Part shown: positions 1 to 52,034 of the stretch, piece after piece
Layout: each line of letters starts with the position of its first letter
Position numbering within the stretch: position 1 is the stretch's first letter
NCBI GenBank assembly: GCA_943356495.1
Contig: CALRFF010000002.1
Span: 99,826-163,825, forward strand
DNA: 64,000 nucleotides
From: Candidatus Nomurabacteria bacterium
GTDB taxonomy: Bacteria; Patescibacteriota; Minisyncoccia; Phycocordibacterales; SBAW01
Direction of reading: 5' to 3'
Translations under genes and position numbers: made by a program
Notes under the pieces: model-generated
The model's input: the letters and a program-made list of their open reading frames with translations, nothing else
The model's database searches: none
Told to the model about the DNA's origin: nothing

Positions 1-1
1 C

Positions 2-154
2 AAAGACAACGGCGCTCCTGGCTATCGCCCGCAGTATCATCCAGGCTACTACGCCGCATTTGTGCTTGACCTTGATGGCTACAACATAGAGGCTGTGTGG
101 GATGACTTGGAAAAGCTAAAAGAAGGTGGATTTATAGCCCCTCATGACCTCTAA
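2..154 (+). CDS. VOC/glyoxalase-family protein, C-terminal fragment (5' end outside window)
   Basis: Frame 2 runs open from the window start to TAA at 152-154. The translation ...YHPGYYAAFVLDLDGYNIEAVWDD... matches the conserved C-terminal beta-strands of VOC/glyoxalase proteins. Confidence 0.45.
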   Translation, partial: KDNGAPGYRPQYHPGYYAAFVLDLDGYNIEAVWDDLEKLKEGGFIAPHDL

Positions 155-935: not shown

Positions 936-1297
936 GGGGCAAATCGGCTTGACTGTGGGTCTCCTTGTGTGATAATGGACAGTGGCTGAAGAAATAAATA
1001 TCGGGGCGAAGAGGTAAACCTCCAAGTTCCGTCGCTCGGTGCAGTCGTCCTTCGGATGGTGTTGACAAAAACACTATGAAAAGGGATAATTACACCGCAG
1101 CCACGAGTGTTTGGTTTTTCGGAATCAACATTCGGTTCTGCTCGATTAGAGCGCCACCAGTTGGCGACGACATTGGGCATCGAAGGCAAGGTTGTCGCAA
1201 GACGCCTTGCCGACATCGAGACTAAAAGGTAACGCTCGGCGTCTCGTCCTCGAAGAAACGCGCACTCGGCGCGTTTTTTCATTACACTGGTAATCCT
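936..1297 (+). ncRNA. candidate structured noncoding region upstream of the RT (possible RT-associated ncRNA)
   Basis: 362-nt gap with no ORF. It contains imperfect direct repeats (cgctcggtgcagtcgtccttcgg at about 1036 and cgctcggcgtctcgtcctcgaag at about 1227). It ends in a GC hairpin gcgcactcggcgcg followed by a T6 run just before the RT start codon. Confidence 0.25.
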
Positions 1298-2530
1298 ATG
1301 GCTGCTGATAAAAGTATCTTCTCTAAAGAAGCCTTAAAAAAGGCATGGAGGCGTATTTATCGCTCCAAATCAAAACGTAAAAGGAATACTTCTCGTGGTA
1401 TTGACGGGATTACAATTCAACAATTTAAGGACAACGAGGCAGAGTATATAGATACACTCTGGAAAGACTTACAAACAGATTCATTTCGTTTCCAAAAACT
1501 CTACGCCTATCAGCAGAAAAAGCCGGGCAAGAAAAAGCCTCGGTTGATTCAAGCCCCTACAGTAAGAGATCGTGTCGTGTTGTCGGTAATAAATAATTAT
1601 TTAGGACAACGACAGCCTGCCGACTCTTTCCGAGATTTAGGAATAGTCGGTTCAGTGAAAGGTACAACCCCTCGGCGTATTGTACGAGAGGTGCTTTCTT
1701 ACGAGAGTGAGGGATTTATCGCAGTCTTTAAAACTGACATAAAAGATTACTTTCCGTCGGTGGATATACCACGACTCAAACGGATGATGAACTCTCTTCT
1801 AAAGGAAGAGGTCTATTTACGCAAACTTATATTCGACTTTTTAAACATAAATAAAGAGAGAGGGCTTGCCCAAGGGTCGGCTATTTCTCCTCTGTTGGCG
1901 AATATTTACCTACGTGCGTTTGATAAAAAACTAGCCAACCGCAAAGACATCAAGCACTTACGATATGTGGATGACATCATCGTTTTTGCAAAAGAGAAAC
2001 GAAAAGCAAAGGAGGTATATAAACCTATAAAAGTGCAACTGTGGGGTAGAGGTCTCTCTATTCATTCTTTGTCGAGCAGGTCTAAGACGCAAACAGGCAT
2101 GCTCCGTTCTGGTGTCATTGATGTACTCGGCGTACGTTTTACGAAGCAAGGACTAAAAATAAAACAGAGTAAAGTTGATGGTTTTCGTAAAGAGGTAATC
2201 GGTAAGTTAAAGCCAGCAGTAATTCTTAAAGATGGAGACAAGAGTGTGCCTCAAAATCTTCGAGAGTATATTGAAAAACTCAATCATCGTATTAGAGGAT
2301 GGGGTAGTGCGTATGCCCTGTGCGACGAAGAAGAACTCTATACCCAATTGGATACGGAGATCCACGGTCGGCTAAATGCGCTTTTAGATTCCCTTTCAAC
2401 ACCTAGAGGAAAAGGTAGGCCAAGACTATTTCTGGATTCCTCTAAAAGGAAAAAGTTGTTGTTTTCGGTTGCTAAGTTAGAAAGCATCCGTATAAAAGTC
2501 CGCAGTAGCGCCCGATGGATGAGGAAATAG
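1298..2530 (+). CDS. reverse transcriptase, group-II-intron-like / retron-like (not DGR type), with thumb/X-like motif
   Basis: RT motif 0 is RGIDGITIQQF. Motif 2 is PTVRDRVV. Motif 4 is AQGSAISPLLANIYL (QGxxxSP). Motif 5 is RYVDDIIVFA (YxDD). The C-terminal RIRGWGSAY resembles the maturase domain-X RGWxxYY motif. No intron domain V/VI is seen downstream and there is no room upstream for domains I-III. Confidence 0.85.
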   Translation: MAADKSIFSKEALKKAWRRIYRSKSKRKRNTSRGIDGITIQQFKDNEAEYIDTLWKDLQTDSFRFQKLYAYQQKKPGKKKPRLIQAPTVRDRVVLSVINNYLGQRQPADSFRDLGIVGSVKGTTPRRIVREVLSYESEGFIAVFKTDIKDYFPSVDIPRLKRMMNSLLKEEVYLRKLIFDFLNINKERGLAQGSAISPLLANIYLRAFDKKLANRKDIKHLRYVDDIIVFAKEKRKAKEVYKPIKVQLWGRGLSIHSLSSRSKTQTGMLRSGVIDVLGVRFTKQGLKIKQSKVDGFRKEVIGKLKPAVILKDGDKSVPQNLREYIEKLNHRIRGWGSAYALCDEEELYTQLDTEIHGRLNALLDSLSTPRGKGRPRLFLDSSKRKKLLFSVAKLESIRIKVRSSARWMRK

Positions 2531-2533
2531 AAC

Positions 2534-2725
2534 CTAGCGTAGAGATTTATAGATCTCGGTTAGGTCTTTTACCGTAACATAAAACTCAGTACCGTCGCCT
2601 GTAATCTTCTTATCGGCAAGGTCTCTGACCATTTGCCCCATGATTTTCTGCTTTTTCTTTGATAGAGTGGAATATAGGTCGAGGAATCTACACTCTGCCT
2701 TTCGGTCGTTGAAGACCCTTTTCAT
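2534..2725 (-). CDS. small hypothetical protein (63 aa), translationally coupled to the serine recombinase
   Basis: Its start overlaps the recombinase stop by 4 nt on the same strand. The product is charged and basic. Confidence 0.4.
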   Translation of the reverse strand: MKRVFNDRKAECRFLDLYSTLSKKKQKIMGQMVRDLADKKITGDGTEFYVTVKDLTEIYKSLR

Positions 2726-4293
2726 CGGGCGTTAACATCATTAATGTTGTTAACATCCCCAACCATCTTGGCGACTAGACTTTGGGCTTCATAATAGGTT
2801 CTCACTTCGTCCACTACTCGGCACCAGAAGGGAAACTGCAAGTCGGAACCCGACCGCCTCGCGGACTCGGCGGTCAAAGCCCATAGTGTTTTCGGGCTGA
2901 ATTCAAATTGGCGATTTCGCAGAATATGGTTCGCGCCGATGTTTTTCAGAAATGCTGTCATGCCGCGGAAGTCGTTGCGGGAAAGCAGATTCGCGGCTTG
3001 ATTCAAGGACAAAACGAATTCACGAGCCGGTTCGAGCCAAGACACGCCTCTCTGCTCGATGTCGGTGATTTTTTCACCGATTCTCACTTTCTCGTTCACG
3101 AGCAGGTTCTTTTTGGCGGCGTATTCAGCTGTGGATAACGCGTCGTTCAGATATGCGTCCAGCAACTTTTCGAGCTTTGCATCTATATCTGTGACTTGTG
3201 TTTTCAGTTGCTGGACTTCACCTCGTGCTTCTTCTTTCGCCTGTGCCTCATCCTGCTCCAACGCCGCCAAAACCTTCTGCGTGTCTTGGCTCGACAAAGA
3301 AACTTTTTGTAGAAACAATTTGATTTGTTCTGTCAGCGCGGCTTCGCGTACATAATGCTTTTCGGTACATGCGCCTCGTTTCTTGGTACAGCGGTAGTAG
3401 GTGTAGATGCCGCCGTTGCCTTTCGCATATTGGGCGGTGATGGAGGCACCGCACGAGGCGCATTTCATGAGGCCGAGAAACGCGAAGTCGTTTTTGCGAA
3501 CTTCCTGCACCTTGCCGCGCTTGGCTAAAACTTCTTGGCATTTGTCAAAAAGTTTCTTTGTCAGAATCGGTTCGTGAGTTCCCTCAAAAATTTCCGACTT
3601 GAACCGCATAAGGCCGATGTAGAAGGGGTTTTGGAGTAGTTTTTGAACATTGCCCACCACGATTGTTTTGCCTCGGTGTCCCCGCAGGTTGTGCTCCTTG
3701 CACCAATTTGCGAGAGAGTAAAGAGTGTGGGCTCCAGTGGCGTACAGTTCAAAAAGTTTCCTCACTTTCGGTGACTTTTCGGCGTCCACATCAATACCGC
3801 GTGTGTTTGCATTGTTCAAGTACCCCACCGGAGCCCAGCCGGGCCATACGCCGTTTCGTATCTTTTGCCGCAAACCGCGCTTTACGTTCTCTCGCAAATT
3901 GTCAGAGAAGTATTTGGATTGCCCAAAAGCAATGTTCAGCATAAATAGTCCTTGTGGTGTCGGTTCAAACCAAAACGTCGGAAATTTGAGGGAACGAATC
4001 AAGCCGCGATCCACCATGTGGATGATTTTGCCTCCGTCCACGCTATTGCGAGCAAGGCGGTCAGGATGCCACGAGATAATCCCCTCTGCTTTCCCGCTCT
4101 CAATCAATGACAGCATTTCTGCGAATTTCATTCGCCCGGGCTCCTTGGCGGTTTTCGCCTCGCAGAACGAGGCGACAATATCAAATTTTTCTTTGGCGGA
4201 ATACTCTTGCAGCTCTGCGAGCTGCGCTTCAATGCTTAATACCTGCCGGTCATCTTCTTCGGTGGATTTGCGAGCGTAGAGTACATATTTCAT
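2722..4293 (-). CDS. large serine recombinase (resolvase/integrase family)
   Basis: N-terminal MKYVLYARKSTEEDDRQVLSIEAQ matches the YAR-S-T catalytic serine motif of resolvase domains. The recombinase domain, a zinc-ribbon (CASCGAS...YYRC) and a C-terminal coiled coil are present, typical of 500+ aa large serine recombinases. Confidence 0.9.
   Translation of the reverse strand: MKYVLYARKSTEEDDRQVLSIEAQLAELQEYSAKEKFDIVASFCEAKTAKEPGRMKFAEMLSLIESGKAEGIISWHPDRLARNSVDGGKIIHMVDRGLIRSLKFPTFWFEPTPQGLFMLNIAFGQSKYFSDNLRENVKRGLRQKIRNGVWPGWAPVGYLNNANTRGIDVDAEKSPKVRKLFELYATGAHTLYSLANWCKEHNLRGHRGKTIVVGNVQKLLQNPFYIGLMRFKSEIFEGTHEPILTKKLFDKCQEVLAKRGKVQEVRKNDFAFLGLMKCASCGASITAQYAKGNGGIYTYYRCTKKRGACTEKHYVREAALTEQIKLFLQKVSLSSQDTQKVLAALEQDEAQAKEEARGEVQQLKTQVTDIDAKLEKLLDAYLNDALSTAEYAAKKNLLVNEKVRIGEKITDIEQRGVSWLEPAREFVLSLNQAANLLSRNDFRGMTAFLKNIGANHILRNRQFEFSPKTLWALTAESARRSGSDLQFPFWCRVVDEVRTYYEAQSLVAKMVGDVNNINDVNAR
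2821..2921. repeat. IR-A: 101-bp perfect inverted repeat, copy inside the 3' end of the recombinase gene (partner at 4351..4451)
   Basis: The reverse complement of 2821-2921 equals 4351-4451 exactly. The recombinase C-terminal peptide NRQFEFSPKTLWALTAESARRSGSDLQFPFWC is therefore also encoded on the plus strand at 4351-4451. Confidence 0.9.
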
Positions 4294-4350
4294 GGCTTTT
4301 GGTACTTAAGAATTGGGAATAAGGAATGACCAAAAATTATTTTTCCCGAA

Positions 4351-4451
4351 TGCGAAATCGCCAATTTGAATTCAGCCCGAAAACACTATGGGCTTTGACC
4401 GCCGAGTCCGCGAGGCGGTCGGGTTCCGACTTGCAGTTTCCCTTCTGGTGC
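4351..4451. repeat. IR-A': partner of IR-A, abutting IR-B with a shared GTGC junction at 4448-4451
   Basis: Direct sequence comparison with the reverse complement of 2821-2921. Confidence 0.9.
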
Positions 4452-4551
4452 AGAATACTTGCATTAGTGCGAACCAGCCGCGCCGCCGGTGGCGGGGGCG
4501 GCGGCGCGGCGGGCCCCTTGCAAAAAACGCAGGCGGCGCAGCCGCTCCGCT
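4448..4551. repeat. IR-B: 104-bp perfect inverted repeat (partner at 5663..5766)
   Basis: The reverse complement of 5663-5766 equals 4448-4551. The stretch is G/C-rich (ccgccggtggcgggggcggcggcgcggcgggcc). Confidence 0.9.
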
Positions 4552-4690
4552 CGAAAACCGCCAAGGAGCCCGGAAAACATCGGCGCGAACTCATATTCTT
4601 CATAGGAATTCGGGAAAAATAATTTTTGGCCATACAATACTGAAATTAGCTTGTATATACAGGGTATTTTGGCATTTGCCCCAGGCGGGC

Positions 4691-4719
4691 TTGACAGGAT
4701 AGGCAAGGTATGCTATCCT
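4691..4719 (+). promoter_or_regulatory. candidate sigma70 promoter for ORF 4772..5443
   Basis: TTGACA at 4691-4696, a 17-nt spacer, then TATCCT at 4714-4719, about 50 nt upstream of the ORF. Confidence 0.35.
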
Positions 4720-4771
4720 ATACGCAGACGAACCAATCAACCGCGCTGAGGCGCAACCCTAGGAGGGGAAC

Positions 4772-5443
4772 ATGAAAGCTGTATTCTACCGTCATAACGA
4801 AACGTTGGCGGCTCTGGTTGCGAAGGCCAATCCTGATTTCGTCCATGAGTTTCCTGCCGAGATGTCCGTCGAGGACATTAAGCAAGAGCTCCTGACACGA
4901 AAGGCAGTGAAGCCGCTTATGGAACTAGTCTTCCCGCCAGACAATTCTTTCCACGATTGCGAGGTGCATGTGGACGGGACGGTCATGGCAGCCGGGATTG
5001 ACACGGTTCTCTGGCAACCATGTTCGCTTCACCTCATCCGTCAAGACAATGTGGGGGCGTACGATTGGTACGCTACCCGTGTTGCCGAAGCGGCCAATCT
5101 TTCCAGCCGAGTTATTGTGGTCAGCGATAGAATCGCGGACCACAATAGCGAAGCACTTTCTTCTCGAGAGGACTTCAGCCGTTACCAAACGGATGAAACG
5201 TATCGAGCGGAGGTGGAAAACTTGGTCGTCGCAAAATGGGTGGAGCGACTGGCGAAGCATGGAATCACTCCTGAAGTCGTCAACGTCGGCACGTTCCGTG
5301 GAATGCTTCTCTCAGGCGCCGTGGTGGTCTGTGATCATCACAATGGCGATATCTGTGAGCTCGAGGATTCCGTTGGATCAAGGGGAGGAATTTGGTTTAA
5401 TGCCTTCCCTTCATGTGGCGATGACGATTTTCTGGCCATGTAG
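4772..5443 (+). CDS. hypothetical protein (223 aa) lying between IR-B and IR-B'
   Basis: ORF preceded by an AGGAGG ribosome-binding site (ctaggaggggaacATG). No recognisable motif. Confidence 0.5.
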   Translation: MKAVFYRHNETLAALVAKANPDFVHEFPAEMSVEDIKQELLTRKAVKPLMELVFPPDNSFHDCEVHVDGTVMAAGIDTVLWQPCSLHLIRQDNVGAYDWYATRVAEAANLSSRVIVVSDRIADHNSEALSSREDFSRYQTDETYRAEVENLVVAKWVERLAKHGITPEVVNVGTFRGMLLSGAVVVCDHHNGDICELEDSVGSRGGIWFNAFPSCGDDDFLAM

Positions 5444-5662
5444 CTGGATCGGAGCGGGTTGATACCCCGCTTGGCAACAGAAGGTTCGAGTACTCGCAAG
5501 AGGCAGTAGGACCAAAACAATCATCGCGAAGCCACGCCGCGATTCATAAATTGTCTGCAAGCCATCTCTCACGAGGTGGCTTTCTTCTTTTTGTAAAAGA
5601 ACAATGCGGTATGCGCTCCGCGCATTCAAAATTTTTCCGCCAAAGAAAAATCTGATATTGTC

Positions 5663-5766
5663 AGCGGAGCGGCTGCGCCGCCTGCGTTTTTTGCAAGGGG
5701 CCCGCCGCGCCGCCGCCCCCGCCACCGGCGGCGCGGCTGGTTCGCACTAATGCAAGTATTCTGCAC
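5663..5766. repeat. IR-B': partner of IR-B
   Basis: Direct sequence comparison. Confidence 0.9.
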
Positions 5767-5768
5767 AA

Positions 5769-5795
5769 AATAATCCCCGAAAGGGGATTATTTGA
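5769..5795 (+). terminator. rho-independent terminator-like hairpin
   Basis: taatcccc-GAAA-ggggatta stem-loop followed by TTTG. Confidence 0.4.
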
Positions 5796-5817
5796 TGTCT
5801 GCTACAATAGACCCGTC

Positions 5818-6816
5818 ATGAAGTTATTTATCGCGCCAATTATAATTTCGCTGGTGGCGCTCGGCGCCGTGTATCTGTGGGGGGGACTCCCGGCTTTTAT
5901 ACTTGCCGCCCTGCTCTCGGTGCTCGAAATTACGCTCTCGTTTGACAACGCGGTCGTTAACGCCAAAGTGCTCGCACAAATGAGCGAGCGCTGGCAACGC
6001 CGGTTCTTAACGTGGGGCATCTTGGTAGCCGTGTTTGGCACTCGTCTTGTTTTGCCGGCAATTATCGTCGGGCTTGCCGCGTGGATATCGCCGCTTGCGG
6101 CAGCAGCCCTAGCTTTCGAGGATCCGGCGGCGTACGCGCACCTTCTTGAGGCGGCATCGCCCGCCATTAACGCCTTCGGCGGTGTCTTTTTGCTTATGGT
6201 GTCGCTCAAATACTTTTTCGATGTGGGTAAAAAAGTGCACTGGATAGCATGGATAGAGCGCTACTTGGCGCGCTGGGGCAGGGTAGAGGCTATCGAGCTG
6301 GCTATCGCGCTTGCTACGCTGCTCGGGCTTTCGTATCTTGCCGACAATCAGGCGCAGGTACTAGCCGCCGGCACCATAGGCTTGCTTACCTTTGTGGTTA
6401 TGCAGGGCATTACGAGCACGCTCGATTTTAAGGCCGGGCAGGTGGTGGCCGGAGGCGGCGTGCTATTTATATATCTCAACATTTTAGACTCGGCCTTTTC
6501 GCTCGACGGGGTGGTGGGCGCGTTCGCGCTTACTACGCAAATCCCCATTATCTTTGTGGGTCTTGGTATAGGCGCGTACTTCGTCCGCTCCATTACCGTA
6601 TATCTGGTGCGCCGCAAGACGCTCGAGGCCCTGCGTTATCTCGAGCACGGCGCGCATTGGGCGATACTCGGTCTCGGGCTCTCGATGCTGGTGGGTATTA
6701 TTGTCCACGTCCCCGAGGTAATCACCGGTCTTATAGGGTTGGTGTTCGTAACCTTGGCGTATGTGTCATCGCGCCGGGCGATACCCTCGCAAAAAACACT
6801 GGAGTCTTTGGGTTAG
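5818..6816 (+). CDS. TerC/DUF475-like integral membrane protein
   Basis: Multi-pass membrane protein with the LEITLSFDNAVVNA motif, which is the TerC-family LSxDN signature. Confidence 0.55.
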   Translation: MKLFIAPIIISLVALGAVYLWGGLPAFILAALLSVLEITLSFDNAVVNAKVLAQMSERWQRRFLTWGILVAVFGTRLVLPAIIVGLAAWISPLAAAALAFEDPAAYAHLLEAASPAINAFGGVFLLMVSLKYFFDVGKKVHWIAWIERYLARWGRVEAIELAIALATLLGLSYLADNQAQVLAAGTIGLLTFVVMQGITSTLDFKAGQVVAGGGVLFIYLNILDSAFSLDGVVGAFALTTQIPIIFVGLGIGAYFVRSITVYLVRRKTLEALRYLEHGAHWAILGLGLSMLVGIIVHVPEVITGLIGLVFVTLAYVSSRRAIPSQKTLESLG

Positions 6817-7342: not shown

Positions 7343-8020
7343 ATGTCCGAGGATACAAAATTTGAGTTTACTACCCCGATGGCGGTAGTGGCGGCCGGCG
7401 TGATTATCGCAGGGGCAATTTTGTACGCCAACACGCAGTCGTCCGCCAATGCTGCGCCGCAAGGGGGTTCGCAGCCGACGGTAGAGGCCCACGTGCAGGC
7501 GCCGAGCGCGGCCGACTACCGCTACGGCTCGGCAAATGCGGAGGTGGTGCTTATCGAGTACTCCGACTTTCAGTGCCCGTACTGCACCATGGTGCATACG
7601 ACACTTAAAGGCCTCGTCGATTCTTCAAACGGCAAAGTGGCGTGGATAATGCGCAACCTGCCGCTTACGCAGATACATCCGCAGGCCAACCCCGCGGCCA
7701 ACGCCGCCGAGTGCATCGGGGAGCAGTTGGGCAGCGCCGGCTGGTGGCGGTATGCCGACGCCGTCTTTGCCAACCCCGACAAACTCAGCGCGCAATACTC
7801 GGCTGAGCTCGCCAAGCAGTTTGGCGCGGACACCGCCAAGTACAATGCCTGCGTTAGCTCGGGTAAATACCAAGCTAAAATAGATGCGCAAACCGCCGAC
7901 GTGCGCGCTTCCGGCGGCAACGGTACGCCCTTTACGGTCGTGTACGGTAAAGGCAAACAGGTGCCGGTGTCGGGGGCGGTGCCGGCGGCTATGTTTCAGT
8001 CGGTAATAGATTCCCTTTAA
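7343..8020 (+). CDS. DsbA-like thiol:disulfide oxidoreductase (thioredoxin fold)
   Basis: N-terminal TM anchor and the CPYC active-site motif (DFQCPYCTMVH). Confidence 0.8.
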   Translation: MSEDTKFEFTTPMAVVAAGVIIAGAILYANTQSSANAAPQGGSQPTVEAHVQAPSAADYRYGSANAEVVLIEYSDFQCPYCTMVHTTLKGLVDSSNGKVAWIMRNLPLTQIHPQANPAANAAECIGEQLGSAGWWRYADAVFANPDKLSAQYSAELAKQFGADTAKYNACVSSGKYQAKIDAQTADVRASGGNGTPFTVVYGKGKQVPVSGAVPAAMFQSVIDSL

Positions 8021-9118: not shown

Positions 9119-9670
9119 ATGAGTAAACAAGACACATCAGTCGGCCGCGCGTGGTACGCGATACACACCTACGCAGGGTATGAAAACGCGGTTGCCCGCA
9201 ACCTCAAACAGCGCATTGAGAGTCTTGGTCTTACCGACAAAATATTTCAGGTAGTAGTACCGACCGAACGTACGATAAAGATTAAGGGCGGCAAGCGCGT
9301 TGAGGAGGAGGAAAAGGTATACCCCGGCTACGTCTTGGTAGACATGATAGTGGACGACCAGTCGTGGTACGTCGTGCGCAACACTCCGCGCGTCACCGGC
9401 TTTGTAGGCTCGGGCGTTAATCCCGTGCCGCTTAAGGAGTCTGAGGTGGCGATATTGCTCGGCCGCATGCAGGCAACCGAGGGCAGTGTTAAACATGCTA
9501 TCGACCTCTCGGTGGGCGACCAAGTGACCATTGTTGACGGACCGTTTAAGGAGCTCGACGGCAAGGTGGGCGAGGTAGACGAGTCGCGCGGCAAGGTAAA
9601 AGTCTTGGTGGCGATGTTCGGCCGCGAGACGCCGGTGGAGTTGGACTTTTTGCAAGTAAAGCGCATATAA
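9119..9670 (+). CDS. nusG: transcription termination/antitermination factor NusG
   Basis: NGN domain (WYAIHTYAGYENAV) and C-terminal KOW (GDQVTIVDGPFKELDGKVGEVD). Confidence 0.9.
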   Translation: MSKQDTSVGRAWYAIHTYAGYENAVARNLKQRIESLGLTDKIFQVVVPTERTIKIKGGKRVEEEEKVYPGYVLVDMIVDDQSWYVVRNTPRVTGFVGSGVNPVPLKESEVAILLGRMQATEGSVKHAIDLSVGDQVTIVDGPFKELDGKVGEVDESRGKVKVLVAMFGRETPVELDFLQVKRI

Positions 9671-9694
9671 GCTATAGTCTCAATCTCAGAATAT

Positions 9695-10117
9695 ATGGCA
9701 AAGAAACTGGTTAAAAAGATAAAAATAATCGCCATGGGCGGCGCTGCCGCTATGACACCGGCCATGGGGCAGGTGCTGGGCCCGGCCGGCATTAACATCG
9801 GCGAATTTTTGAAGAAGTTTAACGACGCATCTAAAGAGATGCGCGGCGACATGGTGCCTGCGGTTATCAGCGTGTACGAGGACCGTTCGTACGACTTTGT
9901 ACTCCGCACGCCGCCGGCGTCGAGCCTTATCCTCAAAGCAATAGGTAAAGAAAAGGGGAGCGGTAAGCCTAATACTGGCAAAGTAGGCACCATTACCAAG
10001 GCGCAGGTTAAGGAAATCGCCGAGCGCAAAATGGTAGACCTTAACGCCCACACCATAGAAGAGGCGGTCAAAATTATCGCCGGCTCCTGTCGTAGTATGG
10101 GCGTAGACGTGAAGTAA
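9695..10117 (+). CDS. rplK: 50S ribosomal protein L11
   Basis: MAKKLVKKIKIIAMGGAAAMTPAMGQVLGPAGINIGEFLKKFN is the canonical L11 sequence. Confidence 0.95.
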   Translation: MAKKLVKKIKIIAMGGAAAMTPAMGQVLGPAGINIGEFLKKFNDASKEMRGDMVPAVISVYEDRSYDFVLRTPPASSLILKAIGKEKGSGKPNTGKVGTITKAQVKEIAERKMVDLNAHTIEEAVKIIAGSCRSMGVDVK

Positions 10118-10241
10118 CCGCCGATTCTTGCAAATTTCATACTTCTGTGCTACTATACGCCGCGGGTTTGTACCTGTGGCGTATTGCGTTTTGTAGCAAC
10201 CGCGTAACAACAATCATCAGACAACAAGCGGAGTTAAGCGA

Positions 10242-10658
10242 ATGAAGATTTACTTCGGCGGCGGCGTAGGCCATCGCCCCGGTCCGGTCGCCAAGCTGCT
10301 CGAGGCGCTCGCCCCCGTATTGCAGGGCCGTGGTCACACGGTGCTCAAATGCGGGCCGACGCCGACGGAAAGCGCGCTCTATGACGCCAACTTGGCGTGC
10401 ATTACGGCAAGCGACCTGTTTATCGCGCCGGTCGACGCTCCCACCATGGAGCTCGGCGCCGACTTGCAGGAAGCTATCCGTGTCGAAAAGCCGGTGCTGT
10501 GCATTACCGACGGCCGGAATCCTATCGCGTCGGCGTACCTTATCGGCGCCGACGCCGAGGGCGTTCTCGACCTCACGGCGTTCCGTGACGTCGACGATGC
10601 CGCCGAGAAGATCTGTGCCTTTGCGGTGATCGCGCAGGCACAGCGCGCGGCGGCGTAG
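10242..10658 (+). CDS. nucleoside 2-deoxyribosyltransferase-like (NDT-fold) protein
   Basis: MKIYFGGG N-terminus and PTMELGADLQEAIRVEKPVLCI resemble the NDT family Rossmann motif, including the catalytic Glu in an xELG context. The gene has very high GC. Confidence 0.45.
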   Translation: MKIYFGGGVGHRPGPVAKLLEALAPVLQGRGHTVLKCGPTPTESALYDANLACITASDLFIAPVDAPTMELGADLQEAIRVEKPVLCITDGRNPIASAYLIGADAEGVLDLTAFRDVDDAAEKICAFAVIAQAQRAAA

Positions 10659-10730
10659 TTGCGTTCGTAGCGTCAGTTTGTTGTGTTGGTTTGTAGTGCT
10701 GGTTGCGTCAGTTGTGTCGTGTAGGGCCCG

Positions 10731-10799
10731 GAGTAACTCCCGGGCCTTTTTCTTTTTAATAGTTAAAAAAGAACCCCGCGCCAATGGCGCGGGGTCGCA
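10731..10799. terminator. pair of bidirectional rho-independent terminators between convergent genes
   Basis: gcccggagtaactcccgggc followed by T-run on the plus strand. ccccgcgccaatggcgcgggg hairpin flanked by A-run upstream and T-run downstream, usable from the minus strand. Confidence 0.55.
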
Positions 10800-10801
10800 T
10801 A

Positions 10802-11536
10802 TTAACCGTAGAGCTCGGCGATACTTTTGTCGCAGCGCTTGTCGGTAAGGCTGAGGGCTCCTTCGATGCTCACAATGCTCTCGATGGCGTCCTCGGGCTT
10901 TTCGAAGTTGCGAGCCTCAATTTCCACGAATACGCGGTTTGCCGGCTGCTTGAGCAGGCCAACCTTGTAGACCACCACCTCGGCACTCCGGCCCAGAGCG
11001 TCCATGAGCTTCCAAAAATGGCCGCTCTGGTGGATGCAAAAGTGCTTGTGCTCCGCAAAAAGGCACACCGTCGACATGAAGGCACGCACATTCTGCACGT
11101 CGGCGTCGCGCAGGTCGAGGTCGAACTCGGCCCGTTGCTCGTTCTCGCCCTCCTTCATCTGCACTTTTACCGTAAGCTCGGAGAGCACGTTGGCAGAGAA
11201 ACGGTAGCGGAACGTCGCTTTGCCCCGCGGCCCCTGCAAGACCCAGTACTGGTCGATGCCGAGGAAAGGCTGGAACCGCCGTACCTGCAGATTGTGTTGC
11301 TGAAGCAAAGGGCCGATACGGCTCAGCGTCACGGTCATGCGGTGGTCGACGCTGTCGGTGCCGCCGACCTCGTATTTGCGCTCGATTTCGCGCTTCTTCG
11401 GCGGGATATCGGCGAGGTTAAACATGGCCCCCAGCTCGCCGTTGGTGCCACGGAAGAGCTGGTGCATCAGCGCCCGTCCCTCGGGGAAGAATGAGGTATC
11501 TGACGACATGACTGCCTCTTTATATGGTTTGTGCAA
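10802..11536 (-). CDS. CYTH-domain protein (triphosphate tunnel metalloenzyme / class IV adenylyl cyclase-like)
   Basis: N-terminal KKREIERKYEV matches the ExExK CYTH signature. Start codon is uncertain (M1 or the M at MSSDTSFF). Confidence 0.55.
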   Translation of the reverse strand: MHKPYKEAVMSSDTSFFPEGRALMHQLFRGTNGELGAMFNLADIPPKKREIERKYEVGGTDSVDHRMTVTLSRIGPLLQQHNLQVRRFQPFLGIDQYWVLQGPRGKATFRYRFSANVLSELTVKVQMKEGENEQRAEFDLDLRDADVQNVRAFMSTVCLFAEHKHFCIHQSGHFWKLMDALGRSAEVVVYKVGLLKQPANRVFVEIEARNFEKPEDAIESIVSIEGALSLTDKRCDKSIAELYG

Positions 11537-11572
11537 CTGCCGCCACTATACTCAAAGCCCGCGGGGAGTCAA

Positions 11573-12028
11573 TTATTTTTCCAAATCGATCCAGCGGTAC
11601 TGCAGCCCTTCGTGCTCGCGTGTTTCTTCTTTTATTTTTTTTGTAAATATATCTTCATAGGCGGGGAAGTAGGCGTCGGCCTCTTTAGTGTCGTCGATAA
11701 CCGTGAGATACAGGCGGTCGGCGTAGGGGAGCGCTTGTTCATAAATTTGCGCACCGCCGATGATAAATACTTCTTGCGTATCCAGTTTTTTTGCTTGCGC
11801 AATCGCGTCTTCGAGCGACAGCGAGGAGCGGCTTACCACTAAATTGGTGCGCCCCGGGAGTGGCTTGCCGATAGACTCAAAGGTCTTGCGGCCCATGATG
11901 ATAGGGTGGCCCATCGTGAGCGCCTTAAAGCGTTTGAGGTCATCGGGTATACGCCACAAAAGCTCATTGCCCGCCCCTAGCTCGCGGTTTTTGCCAATCG
12001 CGGCGATCATGCTGATACGTGGATTCAT
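11573..12028 (-). CDS. folA: dihydrofolate reductase
   Basis: MNPRISMIAAIGKNRELGAGNELLWRIPDDLKRFKALTMGHPIIMGRKTFESIG matches the DHFR signature. Start is placed at the internal Met. Confidence 0.85.
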   Translation of the reverse strand: MNPRISMIAAIGKNRELGAGNELLWRIPDDLKRFKALTMGHPIIMGRKTFESIGKPLPGRTNLVVSRSSLSLEDAIAQAKKLDTQEVFIIGGAQIYEQALPYADRLYLTVIDDTKEADAYFPAYEDIFTKKIKEETREHEGLQYRWIDLEK

Positions 12029-27972: not shown

Positions 27973-28731
27973 ATGCGGCTCTTTGACGCGCATTGCCACC
28001 TGCAGCTGCCCCAGTACGACGCCGACCGCGCCGAAGTGTTGGCGCGCATGGCATTGGCGGGGGTGGGCGCGGTGGTTATCGGCACCGATTTTGAAACATC
28101 AAAGGCAGGGCTTGAGCTTGCGAAACAACATGACTTTTTATGGGCATCTGTCGGTCTGCATCCCAACGACAATGCCGACGAAGAATTTGATGTGGCACAG
28201 TACGAGGCACTGGCCCGCGACCCAAAAGTGGTAGCTATAGGGGAGTGCGGGTTGGATTACTTTAGGACCACCGGCCAAGGCCAGCGCAAAAGGTTCGAGG
28301 CACAGATAGCGCTTGCGCAAAAAGTAAACAAAGCGTTGGTGGTACATTGCCGCAATGCGCACGAGGACTGTATTAGTGTTTTGCAAAACACTGCAATAGC
28401 AAGCAAGGTGCCGGTGGTTATTCATTTTTTTACAGGTTCGGGCGAGCTGGCACAACAGTACCTCAATCTTGGGTGCTATCTCTCGTTCCCGGGGCCTATA
28501 ACTTACACCGACATGTACGACGACTCTATTCAGGTGTGCCCTATGGATAAGATGCTGGTAGAGACCGATGCTCCCTTTGCCGCACCGGTCCCGCACCGCG
28601 GCAAGCGCAACGAACCCGCATATGTTGCTGCAGTGGCCGCCAAAATCGCCGCGGTTAAAGGAATCCCCGCAGAGGAGGTGTGTCGCCAAACCGTCCTTAA
28701 TGCACAACGGATTTTTACTATTGACAAGTAG
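27973..28731 (+). CDS. tatD: TatD-family metal-dependent hydrolase/DNase
   Basis: MRLFDAHCHLQ N-terminus and conserved His/Asp/Glu spacing. Confidence 0.85.
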   Translation: MRLFDAHCHLQLPQYDADRAEVLARMALAGVGAVVIGTDFETSKAGLELAKQHDFLWASVGLHPNDNADEEFDVAQYEALARDPKVVAIGECGLDYFRTTGQGQRKRFEAQIALAQKVNKALVVHCRNAHEDCISVLQNTAIASKVPVVIHFFTGSGELAQQYLNLGCYLSFPGPITYTDMYDDSIQVCPMDKMLVETDAPFAAPVPHRGKRNEPAYVAAVAAKIAAVKGIPAEEVCRQTVLNAQRIFTIDK

Positions 28732-28812: not shown

Positions 28813-29496
28813 TTGATGATGTCGATGCAACCCGCATTGAACACGTCGCCGGTCGTGACCGCCGATAGCCCCAAGGGGCTGCGTGCGCTCGAGACCTTCC
28901 GCGCCCAATACAACAAGGCCCAGCTCGACGACGAGGGTGCCCAACTGCTCAATGAGCACAAGGACTTCGCCGCTTACTTAGCCGAGGGCATTCGCAAGTT
29001 CTCGACCAAAGGGTCGGTGTTCCCGGTTTATCTCGAGATCGAGACGGGCAGCAAGTCGAGGGACGAGCTGCTGAAGGAACTGAAGGCGGCCGAGGTCGAG
29101 GTCTCCAAGTACGCCAAGGACATCATGTCCAAGGACGCTTGGAAGCCTGGCGAGAAGCAGGTCGTCAAATTCGCGCGGGTCAAGGTGAGCGAACTCGGGT
29201 TCACCAACCCGAACAAGCTTCCAACGACTCGCGAGATCTGGGCACGCATCCAGGAACTCGGGCACAGCCTCTGCGAGCCGGCTGACGGCCCGGCCATCCG
29301 GCTGAGTCTCAAGGACCAGCCGCGCGGCGACTACTTCTGGACTGCGATGGAACAGATTTCGGACTCCGGCGGCAGCCCGAGCGTGTTCTTCGTCAAGCGG
29401 TACGACGGCGGCAAGCGCTGGCTCCACGACTTTTGGGTCCGCCCCGACGACCGGTGGTTTCTCGTCGTCGAGTTCGTGTTCCGTCTCCGCAAGTAA
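28813..29496 (+). CDS. DGR target (variable) protein, C-terminal CLec-fold-like variable region
   Basis: Its last 132 nt (the VR) match the downstream TR with adenine-specific substitutions. The TR-encoded ancestral C-terminus ...NDNWVNPDNQWNLDNEIVFRLR follows the Asn-rich, GFRxxR-like ending typical of C-type-lectin-fold DGR targets. Confidence 0.85.
   Translation: MMMSMQPALNTSPVVTADSPKGLRALETFRAQYNKAQLDDEGAQLLNEHKDFAAYLAEGIRKFSTKGSVFPVYLEIETGSKSRDELLKELKAAEVEVSKYAKDIMSKDAWKPGEKQVVKFARVKVSELGFTNPNKLPTTREIWARIQELGHSLCEPADGPAIRLSLKDQPRGDYFWTAMEQISDSGGSPSVFFVKRYDGGKRWLHDFWVRPDDRWFLVVEFVFRLRK
29360..29491 (+). repeat. DGR variable repeat (VR)
   Basis: 132-nt ungapped alignment to the TR with 19 mismatches, all opposite TR adenines. 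The 3' 21 nt are identical (IMH-like). Confidence 0.9.
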
Positions 29497-29543
29497 CACT
29501 CAAGTTTTAGGGTTTAGCCCTAACTCTTGGTCCTTAGCCCTTC

Positions 29544-29579
29544 GGCCCGCATCGCAAGATGCGGGCCGCTTTCTTTTTT
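29544..29579 (+). terminator. GC hairpin with GCAA loop plus T-tract downstream of the VR (terminator / DGR-associated stem-loop)
   Basis: ggcccgcatc-GCAA-gatgcgggcc followed by gctttcttttttg. Confidence 0.6.
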
Positions 29580-29813: not shown

Positions 29814-29945
29814 CGGACTCCGACGGCAACCCGAACGTGTTCTACGTCAAGCGGAACGACGACGGCAAGCGCTGGCTCAACGACAATTGGGTCAACCCCG
29901 ACAACCAGTGGAATCTCGACAACGAGATCGTGTTCCGTCTCCGCA
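29814..29945 (+). repeat. DGR template repeat (TR)
   Basis: Noncoding copy of the VR. It contains the AAC/AAT codons (in target frame) at every position that differs in the VR. Confidence 0.9.
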
Positions 29946-29952: not shown

Positions 29953-30351
29953 TTATTTCTCCCCTGCCTTGGTAGGGGAGTTTTGTTTTGCGAGCTGACC
30001 GCTCCAACCATTGAGCATCTTTCCTATCTCGTCGAGTGGTTGAGCTAGCGCTAAGTAGCGTTTGTCGCGCAGAGATTTTGTCTCCCAAAGAATCAGGAGT
30101 AAAAAGTTGAGCGTGTTGAGCTTTTGCAGAGCCAACAGTACTACGGGACTCTTTTTATCCTTGGGGGCATAGACCGCCGAGGTTATACGTTCGATAAGGT
30201 CAATAAACAAGATGTCTACTCTTTCGCCTAGCGTGTAGCGATGGGCCTTTGGCAGCGTAAGATAGTACTCATGCCACAACAAATAAGCCTGTTTGACCCG
30301 CTCCAAAATAGGCAAAAGCCGTTGGGGGGGGGCTCGTAAAAGAGGACTCAC
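29953..30351 (-). CDS. avd: Avd-like DGR accessory variability determinant (four-helix-bundle family), encoded antisense to TR/RT
   Basis: ILERVKQAYLLWHEYYLTLPKAHRYTLGERVDILFIDLIERITSA aligns with Bordetella bAvd (IVERYERVISYLYPIAQSIPRKHGVAREMFLKCLLGQVELFIVAG). Length is about 130 aa with a basic C-terminus. The start codon is uncertain (the ORF track used GTG). Confidence 0.7.
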   Translation of the reverse strand: MSPLLRAPPQRLLPILERVKQAYLLWHEYYLTLPKAHRYTLGERVDILFIDLIERITSAVYAPKDKKSPVVLLALQKLNTLNFLLLILWETKSLRDKRYLALAQPLDEIGKMLNGWSGQLAKQNSPTKAGEK

Positions 30352-31315
30352 TCATACATATGACGATATCATTTCTGTCGAGAACCTGCTCGCGGCATGG
30401 AAGGAGTTTCGGCGTGGTAAGCGGTCCAAGCTAGACGTGCTGGAGTTTCAAACTGACTTGATGTATCAAATCACCGCTTTGCACGATGAATTAAAGAACA
30501 AAACGTACAAGCACGGCGGCTACCACCACTTTCGCATCAGTGACCCAAAACCCCGCGACATACACAAGGCGAGTGTACGCGACCGGCTGCTTCATCACGC
30601 CATATATAGAAAGCTGTACCCGTTCTTCGACAAAAAGTTCATTGCCGACTCTTACTCCTGCCGCCTGGGGAAGGGGACGCATAAGGCGATGAGTCAGTTC
30701 CGCCGATATGCCGGCAAAGTATCCCGCAACCATACCCGCACGTGCTGGGTCCTGAAGTGCGACATCCGCAAGTTCTTTGCCTCGATCGACCACCGGGTGT
30801 TGTTCTCCATCCTCGAGCGCTCCATACCCGACTCGGATATCCGCTGGCTCTTGCAGGAGGTGGTCGGCAGCTTCCGTGCGAGGCTAAACCTCGCACAAGG
30901 GTTGCCGCTCGGGAATCTCACAAGCCAACTCTTGGTCAACGTGTACATGAACGAGTTTGACCAATACACGAAGCACACGCTCAAAGCCAAGCACTTCATT
31001 CGCTATGCGGATGATTTTGTGCTGCTTTCGCACAACAAAACAGAGCTAGAAAAAAGACTACGATATATCGTAGTCTTTCTATGGGACAAATTAAAGCTGA
31101 AATTGCATCCCAACAAAGTATCCATCAGCACCTTTGCCTCCGGCGTCGACTTTTTAGGCTGGGTGCACTTTACCGACCACCGTGTGTTGCGTACTGCGAG
31201 CAAAAAGAGGATGCAGCGACGGCTACGAGAGCAAGCAGGGAATGAAAGTACCCGTCAATCATATATCGGGATGTTGAAGCATGGGAATACCGAGAAGTTG
31301 CGGCAAAAAATCTGA
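30293..31315 (+). CDS. DGR reverse transcriptase
   Basis: N-terminus ISVENLLAAWKEFRRGKRSK matches the bRT-like WENLWAAYRKAARGKR. SYSCRLGKGTHKA is the DGR-specific motif. LPLGNLTSQLLVNVYM has the I/LGxxxSQ signature in place of QGxxxSP. RYADDFVLL is the YADD motif. Length is about 330 aa. The true start is probably downstream of the TTG chosen by the ORF track. Confidence 0.9.
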   Translation: MTRSKIGKSRWGGARKRGLTHTYDDIISVENLLAAWKEFRRGKRSKLDVLEFQTDLMYQITALHDELKNKTYKHGGYHHFRISDPKPRDIHKASVRDRLLHHAIYRKLYPFFDKKFIADSYSCRLGKGTHKAMSQFRRYAGKVSRNHTRTCWVLKCDIRKFFASIDHRVLFSILERSIPDSDIRWLLQEVVGSFRARLNLAQGLPLGNLTSQLLVNVYMNEFDQYTKHTLKAKHFIRYADDFVLLSHNKTELEKRLRYIVVFLWDKLKLKLHPNKVSISTFASGVDFLGWVHFTDHRVLRTASKKRMQRRLREQAGNESTRQSYIGMLKHGNTEKLRQKI

Positions 31316-50025: not shown

Positions 50026-50901
50026 ATGAAAAAGTTTGCACACGTAGTGGCAGTTGCGGGTGTAGTGTTGGTGGCGCTGGTTGCTACACCGGCGCTTGCC
50101 GCGCCCACCGCCGAGCTGCACATTACCGCCGAGGGCAAGTTGAGCGCGAAAAACATTGTTGTACTGCAAAAGTCGGGGACTACGCTGTTTTGCCGCGCGC
50201 TGTGGGGCAATGCGTTTGTCCGGTTGACGGTACTGACCACGCCCGACACGGTGTCGGCGGTTATTGTGCGTAACCACGGCGGTATTGCCACGATTGATGA
50301 AATACAAGACGGCGACCTTATCTCGGTCGAAGGTTCTTTGGTGCCGGCGGCCGACTCGCTGCAAATTAACGCCAAGCGCATAGTCGACTACTCGCTTAAC
50401 AAAGAGCCGAAGACGCTTGCGGGTACGATACAAAGCGTCGGGGGCGGCACCTTTGTGCTTACCAACAAGCTTTTTAACAACACGACCGTGGTGGTCGGTA
50501 CCTCAACCCTTACCAAAGGTGTGCGTACCATTACCATTGCCGAGCTTGTGGTTAAAGACAAAGTGCTTTCCGCCAAAGGCTTGTACGACTACACCACCAA
50601 CACGCTTACGGCATCCTCTATCGAAATCTTTCAGGACAAGGCGGTGTTTAAACAGCGGGCCTTCGAAGGCACTATCCGCGCCATATCCGCTACAACGCTC
50701 CCCGCAACCGTAACCATCGCTACCGCCGGTGCAGACTATATGGTGTATTTGCCTGCGGGGACCAAAGTGCTCAACAAACTCCGCGCCCCCGCCGACCTGT
50801 CGCGCTTTGCGCCGGGCGACAAGGTAGCGATCCTCGGCTCTATCCGCCAAACCAATCTGGCCGAGGTAGACGCGGTCTCCATCCGCAACCTCAACTTCTA
50901 G
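50026..50901 (+). CDS. hypothetical secreted protein (291 aa)
   Basis: Signal peptide (VAVAGVVLVALVATPALAAP) followed by a beta-rich sequence. Confidence 0.45.
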   Translation: MKKFAHVVAVAGVVLVALVATPALAAPTAELHITAEGKLSAKNIVVLQKSGTTLFCRALWGNAFVRLTVLTTPDTVSAVIVRNHGGIATIDEIQDGDLISVEGSLVPAADSLQINAKRIVDYSLNKEPKTLAGTIQSVGGGTFVLTNKLFNNTTVVVGTSTLTKGVRTITIAELVVKDKVLSAKGLYDYTTNTLTASSIEIFQDKAVFKQRAFEGTIRAISATTLPATVTIATAGADYMVYLPAGTKVLNKLRAPADLSRFAPGDKVAILGSIRQTNLAEVDAVSIRNLNF

Positions 50902-50949
50902 CTGTAGCTCTAGCCGACAGTAAGTCTGTGTATAAATAGCTTGCATATA

Positions 50950-50975
50950 AAAGACTACGATATATCGTAGTCTTT
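50950..50975. repeat. 26-bp perfect palindrome aaagactacgatatatcgtagtcttt (copy 1, abutting the start codon of the TrpR/YerC-like gene)
   Basis: Self-complementary sequence. Identical copies at 51388-51413 and 31053-31078. Confidence 0.9.
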
Positions 50976-51386
50976 ATGCCGCATGTATCCAGACATACTC
51001 CGATTAAAAAGGTTTCAGATAAAACATTCGGTTTGTTTATGGAATGTGTTACCGGCAAGTGGTCGAAAGATGAGCGTAGAGCATTTTTTGATAATCTCCT
51101 GACCCCTACCGAAAGAGTTATGTTTTCAAAAAGATTGGCAATAATATACATGCTTGCCAAAGGCCACTCATTTGATGCCATTCAAGAAACATTACGAGTA
51201 AGCCCCTCCACAGTTGCACGTCTGTGGAGTGCAATCCAAAAAGGTAAATATACTGAAGTCACTCGGCACCTGCAAAAACAATTAGAGCGCGATACTGATT
51301 TTGAACACTGGTTTTCGCTACTGATGCCCCCGATGCATATGAGCAAAAAGCAATATGCTGAACGTATGCGTCGTCTCAATCTATAA
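50976..51386 (+). CDS. TrpR/YerC/YecD-like DNA-binding protein
   Basis: LLTPTERVMFSKRLAIIYMLAKGHSFDAIQETLRVSPSTVARL matches the YerC/YecD Trp-repressor-like family pattern (LLTP.E......R......L..G.S...I......S..T..R). Confidence 0.6.
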   Translation: MPHVSRHTPIKKVSDKTFGLFMECVTGKWSKDERRAFFDNLLTPTERVMFSKRLAIIYMLAKGHSFDAIQETLRVSPSTVARLWSAIQKGKYTEVTRHLQKQLERDTDFEHWFSLLMPPMHMSKKQYAERMRRLNL

Positions 51387-51414
51387 AAGACTACGATATA
51401 TCGTAGTCTTTTAT
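51383..51414. repeat. 32-bp perfect palindrome ataaaagactacgatatatcgtagtcttttat (copy 2, overlapping the stop codon of the TrpR/YerC-like gene)
   Basis: Self-complementary. Its outer flank tatgcaag is the inverse of the flank cttgcata at copy 1. Confidence 0.9.
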
Positions 51415-51428
51415 GCAAGTGATGTTTT

Positions 51429-52034
51429 TTGTTGGTTTATAATTTAGACATGAATGCTTCAGGGGTTTTGGAGCGGGTTTGGCTGTGGGTTAAGTGGCCG
51501 GTCATTGTACTGGCGGTGGGCTTTGTTGCTTTTGCTATATGGGGCACGATGCTCGCGCTCGACAAAGACAAGACCGATGCCGCTGTGGCGCAGATACATG
51601 CGCAAAAGCTTACCCTTGCCGATGTAGTGGGCGCTAACCTACCATCGGTCCCCGACCAAGCAGAGAACGACGCCACTGTTGCGGGGATAGATACAAACAA
51701 CAACGGTATCCGCGACGATGTCGAGTTGGCTATTTTTGCAAAATACCCTACCTCCGCCAAAATCCGCGCGGCAGCACTACAGTATGCGATGGCGGAGCAA
51801 ATGTATTTAACTAAAGTTTTTAATACAGGTACATGGAAAGCTGTGGCGGAAGAAGTCGGACGAGCACACACTTGCGTTATAAATGCGGGCGCAAACAGAA
51901 AAGAAGTTGAAGTCTTGGTATCAAATACACAGTTAAGAAAAGAAACAAGGACTAAAGCCTTTGAATTTATTACTAGCCACGGTGACGCTCGGGGTGAGCC
52001 ATGCGATGTAGCTTTAAATACATTACCCAATTAG
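51429..52034 (+). CDS. hypothetical membrane-anchored protein (201 aa)
   Basis: N-terminal TM (WPVIVLAVGFVAFAIWGTMLAL). Confidence 0.4.
   Translation: MLVYNLDMNASGVLERVWLWVKWPVIVLAVGFVAFAIWGTMLALDKDKTDAAVAQIHAQKLTLADVVGANLPSVPDQAENDATVAGIDTNNNGIRDDVELAIFAKYPTSAKIRAAALQYAMAEQMYLTKVFNTGTWKAVAEEVGRAHTCVINAGANRKEVEVLVSNTQLRKETRTKAFEFITSHGDARGEPCDVALNTLPN

Follow-up and report, generated by a model that had tools for sequence, protein, structure and literature searches.

Repressors of the TrpR family are controlled by ligands; the YerC protein of Bacillus subtilis is one of them (HisR), and both TrpR and HisR have palindromic operators of about 20 bp whose consensus is specific to the lineage (PMC9413887). 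In this study, we analyzed a 64,000-nucleotide stretch of a Candidatus Nomurabacteria bacterium genome (contig CALRFF010000002.1, positions 99,826 to 163,825; here called the window), in which a 26-bp perfect palindrome, AAAGACTACGATATATCGTAGTCTTT, lies within the reverse transcriptase (RT) gene of a diversity-generating retroelement (DGR) and at both ends of a distant gene for a TrpR/YerC-like protein. Intragenic operators that act as roadblocks include the PurR box in E. coli purB, the CcpA cre sites in open reading frames (ORFs), and lacO2 in lacZ. To our knowledge, no dedicated transcriptional regulator that would restrain such a self-mutagenic retroelement has been described for any DGR, nor did a literature search find one. 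The same search returned no account of a palindrome in DGR RT genes, of a TrpR-like regulator linked to a DGR, or of this motif in Patescibacteria. Regulators of the TrpR family that act on palindromic operators are already a known kind of system; new are the subfamily, the bracket architecture, the putative in-frame operators that vary symmetrically, and the association with a DGR.

On the comparative evidence we lean, with modest confidence, toward the view that the 26-mer is the operator (the cognate DNA site) of the 136-aa TrpR/YerC-family protein. This view is favored because the palindrome brackets the gene family in distant lineages, has lineage- and paralog-specific variants, and is kept at the nucleotide level in RT genes. 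An earlier note on this DNA had offered three roles for the palindrome; the comparison favors the first, an operator that would couple the RT to the YerC-like regulator, and weakens the other two, an RNA hairpin and a mobile repeat. The features concerned are as follows.

31053..31078 (no strand): palindrome in the coding sequence of the DGR RT, codons K254-F262 (KRLRYIVVF), an exact match; proposed intragenic operator.
50950..50975 (no strand): 5' copy of the palindrome, its last base directly preceding the TrpR/YerC-like ATG; proposed autoregulatory operator.
50976..51386, plus strand: gene for the TrpR/YerC-family helix-turn-helix protein (136 aa), with MPHVS at the N-terminus and VSPSTVARLW as the recognition helix; the protein proposed to bind the palindrome.
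51386..51411 (no strand): 3' copy of the palindrome, beginning at the final base of the TrpR/YerC-like TAA stop codon.

No further match with three or fewer mismatches was found anywhere else in the window, and the number of matches expected from 100 dinucleotide shuffles was 0, which rules out chance recurrence. Exact matching thus bears out the earlier claims that the RT copy is read in frame as KRLRYIVVF between the YADD motif and LKLHPNK and that identical copies flank the distant TrpR/YerC-like gene, and the shuffles agree with the claim that chance is effectively impossible. The 3' copy together with its flanks forms a 32-bp perfect palindrome (51383-51414). The 26-mer is AT rich; G+C makes up about 36% of its stem, and TTT comes after it (TTTT in the case of the 3' copy). 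The constrained unit consists of a conserved 14-bp core, TACGATATATCGTA, and variable but symmetric outer arms; palindromes of this type are centered on GATATATC.

When one genome per species was scanned, ten contigs belonging to seven metagenome-assembled genomes (MAGs) of Patescibacteria proved to contain the exact 26-mer, and a scan of metagenomes with the 20-mer core added 68 contigs. The taxon labels of the MAGs (Saccharibacteria, Nomurabacteria, and Adlerbacteria) are as deposited; housekeeping proteins at 82 to 90% identity suggest that the clade with the exact 26-mer is fairly narrow. RT genes were the commonest class of site and yerC-like loci the next, and each other class was represented by at most five contigs.

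The association with the yerC-like gene extends well beyond the window. The same layout, palindrome-ATG followed by stop-palindrome, was observed in closer homologs (57 to 72% identity) on nine or more contigs. In 12 further yerC-like loci, all distinct, 0 to 2 nt separate the 5' palindrome from the ATG, and 13 distinct loci plus a paralog carry a palindrome at both gene ends, with co-varying sequence. Distant homologs, down to 39% identity, are likewise bracketed, by palindromes that have the core TACGATATATCGTA in common and outer arms specific to the lineage. Four examples, each a yerC-like gene, are listed with identity to the window protein.

L092: 61% identity; arms TAC..GTA round the core.
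L079: 52% identity; arms CAC..GTG round the core.
L083: 41% identity; arms TTAA..TTAA round the core.
L081 (Giovannonibacteria): 39% identity; arms GTGA..TCAC round the core.

One contig carries a second gene of the family in addition to the yerC-like gene.

L074 (MAG H43-bin025), 10773-11195: second TrpR-family gene, 140 aa; PF01371 at 50.5 bits; helix GHDTIHRVQRW.

This paralog is bracketed by its own palindrome, TACTATGATATATCATAGTA. A third copy of it, a perfect 26 bp, lies 1.2 kb off and provides a minus-strand ORF of 369 aa with its stop codon; the whole arrangement spans 9524-11237. That the paralogs each have their own palindrome, differing at symmetric positions, is the pattern that would be expected of protein-specific operators, not of generic hairpins.

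The protein itself is consistent with such a role. It matches PF01371 (Trp_repressor) at 42.6 bits against a cut-off of 27 and scores under the equivalog cut-offs of both TIGR02531 (YerC/YecD; 27.1 versus 42.2 bits) and TIGR01321 (TrpR; 22.4 versus 67.25). Because it falls under the YerC/YecD cut-off, the protein represents a separate subfamily and is an ortholog of neither HisR nor TrpR. Its AlphaFold2 model (pLDDT, a per-residue confidence score, of 84) fits E. coli TrpR and Staphylococcus aureus 3kor over the entire TrpR chain, the match to PDB 3kor having an E value of 8e-5, and the top 29 Foldseek matches in the PDB were all TrpR or TrpR-like chains (target-normalized template-modeling score, 0.73 to 0.80); the model thus assigns a TrpR fold to the protein. 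The family comprises 1,036 related clusters at 50% identity (E ≤ 1e-3, among 1.84 billion representatives), throughout which SPSTV.R in the recognition helix and MPH[VIL]S at the N-terminus are conserved. Depending on the lineage, the gene adjoins RNase J or rplJ-rplL, a placement such as a stable chromosomal gene would have. Its G+C content is about 40% in a context of about 57%, and it lacks a Shine-Dalgarno sequence, though the clade uses AAGGAG.

The second line of evidence comes from the RT gene.

30293..31315, plus strand: DGR RT, 340 aa; RVT_1 at E = 1e-25 (91 bits); GNLTSQ and YADD motifs.

About 33 of the scan matches are RT genes with the palindrome at the same codons, and approximately 20 distinct orthologous RTs share the site. 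Those that share the 26-mer are 61 to 79% identical in amino acid sequence and have scrambled synonymous sites in the flanks. Eight codons (AGA CTA CGA TAT ATC GTA GTC TTT) are invariant across the orthologs; since a match in the DNA was the means of collecting these loci, their core is ascertained, and the apparent invariance of the 20-mer core is inflated by exact-match ascertainment. Over 24 distinct RT segments, the pairwise identity at third codon positions was 0.94 within the 26-mer and 0.51 in the 90-nt flanks, and it falls sharply at the bases directly flanking the 26-mer (positions 0 and 27). The codon before these codons is AAA, GAA, or CAA, and the AA that completes the palindrome is always kept in the 24 segments. 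The RT of contig L091, retrieved by protein similarity alone (QERLRYIVVF), also contains the exact 26-mer.

The spacing from YADD to LHP is equal in 119 RT homologs, with or without the palindrome, and therefore nothing has been inserted in the RT, as the earlier note had stated. The copy is under constraint at the nucleotide level and is not an insertion. The note had also raised a gene-conversion footprint or a recent acquisition in this genome and had proposed comparing orthologous RTs to see whether the palindrome is lineage specific. It is not confined to this genome: it stands at the same codons in RTs of related Patescibacteria, and both the recent insertion and the lineage-specific feature are ruled out by this comparison. 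A gene-conversion footprint in this genome is not supported either, the locus being, as set out below, vertically inherited.

The peptide RLRYIVVF was present in only 14 of the 119 nearest RT homologs; many others have xLRYIVVF or LRYIEVF. The DNA of such variants was compared with the window site.

Window: KRLRYIVVF, AAAGACTACGATATATCGTAGTCTTT, perfect, 26 bp.
L084: KILRYIVVF, AAATACTACGATATATCGTAGTATTT, perfect, 26 bp, arms AAATAC..GTATTT.
L094: QTLRYIEVF, AAACACTTCGATATATCGAAGTGTTT, perfect, 26 bp, AAACAC-TTCGATATATCGAA-GTGTTT.
L086: QVLRYIVVF, TACTACGATATATCGTAGTA, perfect, 20 bp.
L085 and L093: QTLRYIVVF and KTLRYIVVF, imperfect, one-mismatch intermediates.

The variants are palindromes altered on both arms and not products of decay: positions 4/23 and 8/19 co-vary, and the inner bases, including the central ATAT, are constant. 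The TAC..GTA arms also flank the yerC-like gene of L092, and the CAC..GTG arms flank that of L079. Variant sites include TAC/GTA, CAC/GTG, TTCG/CGAA, and the TATGATATATCATA of the paralog. In L094, the TatD gene (7926-7951) contains a partial site, CAAACACTTCGATATATCGAA, which matches the RT site in its own genome exactly over 21 nt. At the same place, the gene differs in length by seven codons from the window TatD (27973-28731), and the site could be a short-patch insertion or gene conversion.

The RT belongs to a genuine DGR; its variable repeat (VR) and template repeat (TR) differ only at TR adenines. The remaining parts of the element are listed below.

29360..29491, plus strand: VR, at the 3' end of the target ORF (28813..29496).
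29814..29945, plus strand: TR, 86% identical to the VR, with all mismatches at TR adenines (132-nt repeat).
29953..30351, minus strand: Avd-like accessory gene, divergent from the RT gene and overlapping its 5' end.

The Avd-like ORF scores under the cut-offs of its models (bAvd, 36 versus 40 bits; NCBIfam DivGenRetAVD, 55 versus 80 bits). It overlaps the 5' end of the RT gene by 59 bp, so that transcription from the TR into the RT has to cross avd in the antisense direction; the same divergent layout was found in L002, L004, L006, and L008. Since two relatives share the gene order TatD, target, avd (minus strand), RT, rpsF, ssb, rpsR, and efp, the DGR is vertically inherited at this locus. 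Neither the DGR nor the yerC-like gene is a recent arrival, because both occupy conserved chromosomal neighborhoods. The genes 3' of the RT vary between lineages, which rules out the RT palindrome as an internal promoter for rpsF-ssb-rpsR.

Other inverted repeats were observed in and near the DGR. A G+C-rich hairpin with a 4-nt GCAA loop lies at 29543-29568, 47 nt past the VR, and looks like the known DGR target-site hairpin; another G+C-rich hairpin with a 4-nt loop lies at 29959-29980, 14 nt past the TR. Some RT orthologs (L002 at 1264, L061 at 1985, L084, and L094 at 10165) have a second short palindrome, centered on TGATATATCA, near codons 45 to 55, which in L094 reaches 20 bp (TGACTTGATATATCAAGTCA); its window counterpart is the degenerate TGATGTATCA at 30459-30468. 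Many RT relatives carry AGTAGGTC-A-GACCTACT a few codons past this palindrome.

The 26-mer was also found in and behind unrelated genes. Both of its open frames are used, encoding KRLRYIVVF or KTTIYRSL, and the genes that contain it in frame encode RNase HII, an HhH-GPD glycosylase, MiaA, MurD, an ATE_C/GNAT transferase, and a GT4 glycosyltransferase. In RNase HII, the transferase, and MiaA, it occupies the same gene position in different contigs, and the RNase HII pair and the transferase orthologs are clearly diverged from each other. RNase HII, the gene among these for which length was tested, aligns end to end with its Pfam model, and so no length has been added. Other copies lie 4 to 25 nt past the stop codons of uvrB, asnS/aspS, and ribonucleotide reductase, between the convergent genes rplK and folA, and after recJ. 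In L039 (4391-4439), the palindrome fills the 47-bp gap between rplK and folA; the window (10117-11573) has two extra ORFs and no palindrome in this gap, with nusG-rplK and folA 82 to 90% identical to those of L039. Intergenic sites have therefore been gained or lost between close relatives. A glycosyltransferase gene in L003 and L052 (3821-3893) contains a perfect copy and, at a distance of 47 bp, another with six mismatches; the two are read in different open frames (KTTIYRSL and LLRYIVVL). In a scan of a viral collection, the only match to the 18-mer ACTACGATATATCGTAGT was at 400-417 of L087 (IMG/VR UViG 3300011994_000002), with unrelated flanks (cacaACTACG..GTAGTctcc).

Taken as an operator, the palindrome suggests the following mechanism. 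A symmetric dimer of the TrpR-fold protein would read the core TACGATATATCGTA together with the lineage-specific outer arms. The copies that bracket the regulator's own gene would provide autoregulation, the 5' copy being placed between the upstream control region and the ATG and the 3' copy possibly acting as an insulator or a terminator. In the RT gene, the putative operator would be built into the coding sequence itself, with codons that suit the helix linking RT motifs 5 and 6. With protein bound, this site would act as a roadblock, stopping RNA polymerase about 240 nt short of the end of the gene and truncating the message ahead of motifs 6 and 7 and the thumb. The protein would likewise obstruct RNA polymerase at sites within or behind other genes, and DGR mutagenesis would be tied to whatever signal, such as a ligand, the regulator may sense. 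A broader and more doubtful proposal, which we advance tentatively, is that a TrpR-fold family across the Patescibacteria uses long in-frame palindromic sites that evolve symmetrically, that the DGR RT is its best-conserved target after its own gene in this clade, and that this would be the first dedicated, possibly metabolite-sensing, switch of targeted hypermutation.

Several points weigh against the operator. Binding and the effect on expression are inferred from sequence comparison. Most of the other sites lie within ORFs or just past the 3' ends of convergent genes and not at promoters, which is odd for a classical repressor. The regulator falls below the NCBIfam YerC/YecD cut-off (27 versus 42 bits), and the constraint spans 26 bp, compared with the 18 to 20 bp typical of TrpR-family operators. 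Symmetric double changes would also be expected from a base-paired hairpin or cruciform or from arm-to-arm gene conversion, and the agreement of variants within a genome is free of ascertainment bias only for the yerC pairs, L074, and L094 (RT and TatD).

The alternative that survives best keeps the same protein-site pair and gives it an architectural or replication-linked role, exerted through few high-affinity sites as with parS/ParB, matS/MatP, and Noc. The sites are indeed few (three in 64 kb), many of them are intragenic at orthologous positions, and they are as highly conserved as parS; many host or neighbor genes act in DNA metabolism (RNase HII, HhH-GPD glycosylase, uvrB, ribonucleotide reductase, recJ/RNase H, folA, and the RT). 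A conserved element beside the 5' site of the yerC-like gene points the same way.

50927..50935, plus strand: DnaA-box-like 9-mer TGTGTATAA (one mismatch; reverse complement of TTATACACA), 14 nt 5' of the upstream palindrome.

Of 13 distinct yerC-like loci, 11 (the window, L009, L010, L012, L013, L032, L038, L051, L070, L079, and L092) have the 9-mer TGTGGATAA (reverse complement of TTATCCACA) or a one-mismatch variant ahead of the 5' palindrome, at a distance of about 14 nt that varies by only a few nt. DnaA-box-like 9-mers with at most one mismatch are enriched in the window (27 versus 7.9 expected). TGTGGATAA is ruled out as the ordinary -10 element of the clade, since upstream k-mers give TATACT/TACAAT, TTGACAA, and AAGGAG. 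We nevertheless regard an architectural role as unlikely: TrpR-family proteins are ligand-controlled repressors (PMC9413887), the candidate binder has no ParB-like or CTPase domain, the window contains no GC-skew switch, and the intergenic sites come and go among close relatives (rplK/folA, L039 versus the window).

A second alternative is that the palindrome matters only for its structure, as an RNA hairpin or DNA cruciform (a bidirectional terminator, an mRNA stabilizer, or a pause site) that is independent of the YerC-like protein. Folding predicts stable hairpins (-15 to -22 kcal/mol; z scores of -5 to -8) bordered by A-tracts to the left and T-tracts to the right, many copies lie 4 to 25 nt past the stop codons of convergent genes, and changes in the arms are compensatory. 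However, the loop and inner stem do not vary even between lineages with proteins of only 39% identity, which a plain hairpin would not need; terminating transcription within RNase HII, MiaA, MurD, or the RT would do harm; and paralogous regulators are bracketed by paralog-specific palindromes. A scan for terminators called no terminator-like site in 50700-51700, nor was the RT copy called. The copies do not present the G+C-rich stem followed by a U-run of a rho-independent terminator, and the canonical terminator and promoter calls were uninformative. A search of Rfam 15 gave only chance-level matches far under the gathering scores and thus no known RNA family. We give a structure-only element rather poor odds.

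The third alternative, which we consider improbable, is a selfish or recombinogenic palindromic repeat (REP/RAYT-like, attC-like, or dif-like, or spread by short-patch gene conversion), with the yerC-like gene as a cassette and the RT copy as a tolerated in-frame footprint. Two rearrangements keep it alive. In L012, three palindromes lie within 1.3 kb (100-127, 842-867, and 1284-1309), and the first is an "empty" site that combines the upstream flank of the second with the downstream flank of the third, such as would result if a unit had been duplicated and the yerC-like gene had then left or entered one of its copies; part of the RNase J 3' end likewise occurs twice in this region. The second rearrangement lies between a gene for an RRM protein and that for RNase J, where L010 (2909-3770) has palindrome-yerC-palindrome and L005 (570-1600) has a glycosylase gene of the HhH-GPD type with a single internal palindrome, the palindrome being the only element that the two loci share. 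The L094 TatD site, with its 21 nt in common with the RT site and its 7-codon length difference, and the low G+C content of the yerC-like gene would also suit a mobile repeat, and short-patch gene conversion may be the origin of new sites. Against this, neither the RT nor RNase HII has a length insertion, the sites occupy orthologous positions in diverged genomes under sharp nucleotide-level constraint, no transposase or recombinase is nearby, the flanked gene encodes only a helix-turn-helix protein, and the copy number is low. A mobile yerC cassette is further weakened by synteny with RNase J or rplJL, kept across distant lineages, which leaves this a minor rival.

Some specific candidates can be dismissed briefly: in-frame mobile insertions like the Rickettsia palindromic elements (RPE) or miniature inverted-repeat transposable elements would add length (spacing is unchanged in the 119 RT homologs, and RNase HII matches its model end to end, the seven-codon difference in L094 TatD being a possible exception), uptake sequences (which share a bias to genome-maintenance genes and variant forms) would need a far higher copy number, REPtrons do not fit a flanked gene with a TrpR helix-turn-helix only and three copies in 64 kb, and a LexA/SOS box is ruled out because no core copy lies near lexA in L084, where the sole core match of the locus is the RT site.

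Elsewhere in the window, positions 1-6000 have low G+C content (43 to 53%) and contain a second RT gene, non-DGR (1298-2530), a large serine recombinase gene on the minus strand (2722-4293), and long inverted repeats (2797-5766; 125 nt at 93% and 104 nt at 100%). This region is probably an integrated mobile element.

If the palindrome is indeed an operator, the 136-aa protein would be the first candidate regulator of a DGR. A conserved putative operator in the RT and an identifiable small candidate regulator make the idea readily testable with one 136-aa protein and one 26-mer. The pair would add to the few regulator-motif pairs predicted in Patescibacteria, for a family of more than 1,000 sequence clusters, and would represent overlapping codes, in which a protein helix and a 26-bp DNA site would be specified by the same bases and evolve through paired symmetric substitutions.

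Compared with TrpR and HisR (B. subtilis YerC), the protein belongs to the same Pfam family and has the same predicted fold, and the proposed site is likewise a symmetric palindrome of about 20 bp with a lineage-specific consensus and a copy at the regulator's own gene (PMC9413887). Unlike these, the protein forms a distinct Patescibacteria subfamily with a conserved MPHVS N-terminus and a C-terminal extension of about 30 aa, the motif is TACGATATATCGTA instead of cacTTTA-N6-TAAAgtg or TGTACTAGTTAACTAGTACA, the constraint spans 26 bp with sites at both gene ends, and the other sites are intragenic or 3' terminal and not at amino acid biosynthesis promoters. As in the intragenic roadblock operators, a palindromic site lies in a coding sequence, the length of the protein is unchanged, and the (here candidate) repressor is encoded elsewhere. 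Here, the host is a DGR RT, the site is identical across orthologs and recurs in several unrelated ORFs, and the roadblock is putative. The resemblance to parS/ParB lies in the few perfect palindromes per genome, often within ORFs, conserved far beyond neutral expectation, and located in or beside the gene of the binder; the candidate binder here is a 136-aa TrpR-fold protein and not ParB. As in a REPtron, in which a RAYT gene lies between REP palindromes, one small gene lies between two palindrome copies and others are dispersed, often at gene 3' ends, but here there is no HUH/Y1 transposase domain, the copy number is very low, and the dispersed copies occupy orthologous, constrained positions, including in-frame sites in ORFs. 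Finally, known DGR cis elements, namely, the initiation of mutagenic homing (IMH) sequence and the GC-rich hairpin/cruciform 3' of the VR, include an inverted repeat associated with the DGR, and the canonical GC-rich hairpin with its GCAA loop does follow the VR here (29543-29568). The 26-mer, in contrast, is AT rich, lies within the RT ORF instead of adjoining the VR or the TR, and is found in genes outside DGRs as well.

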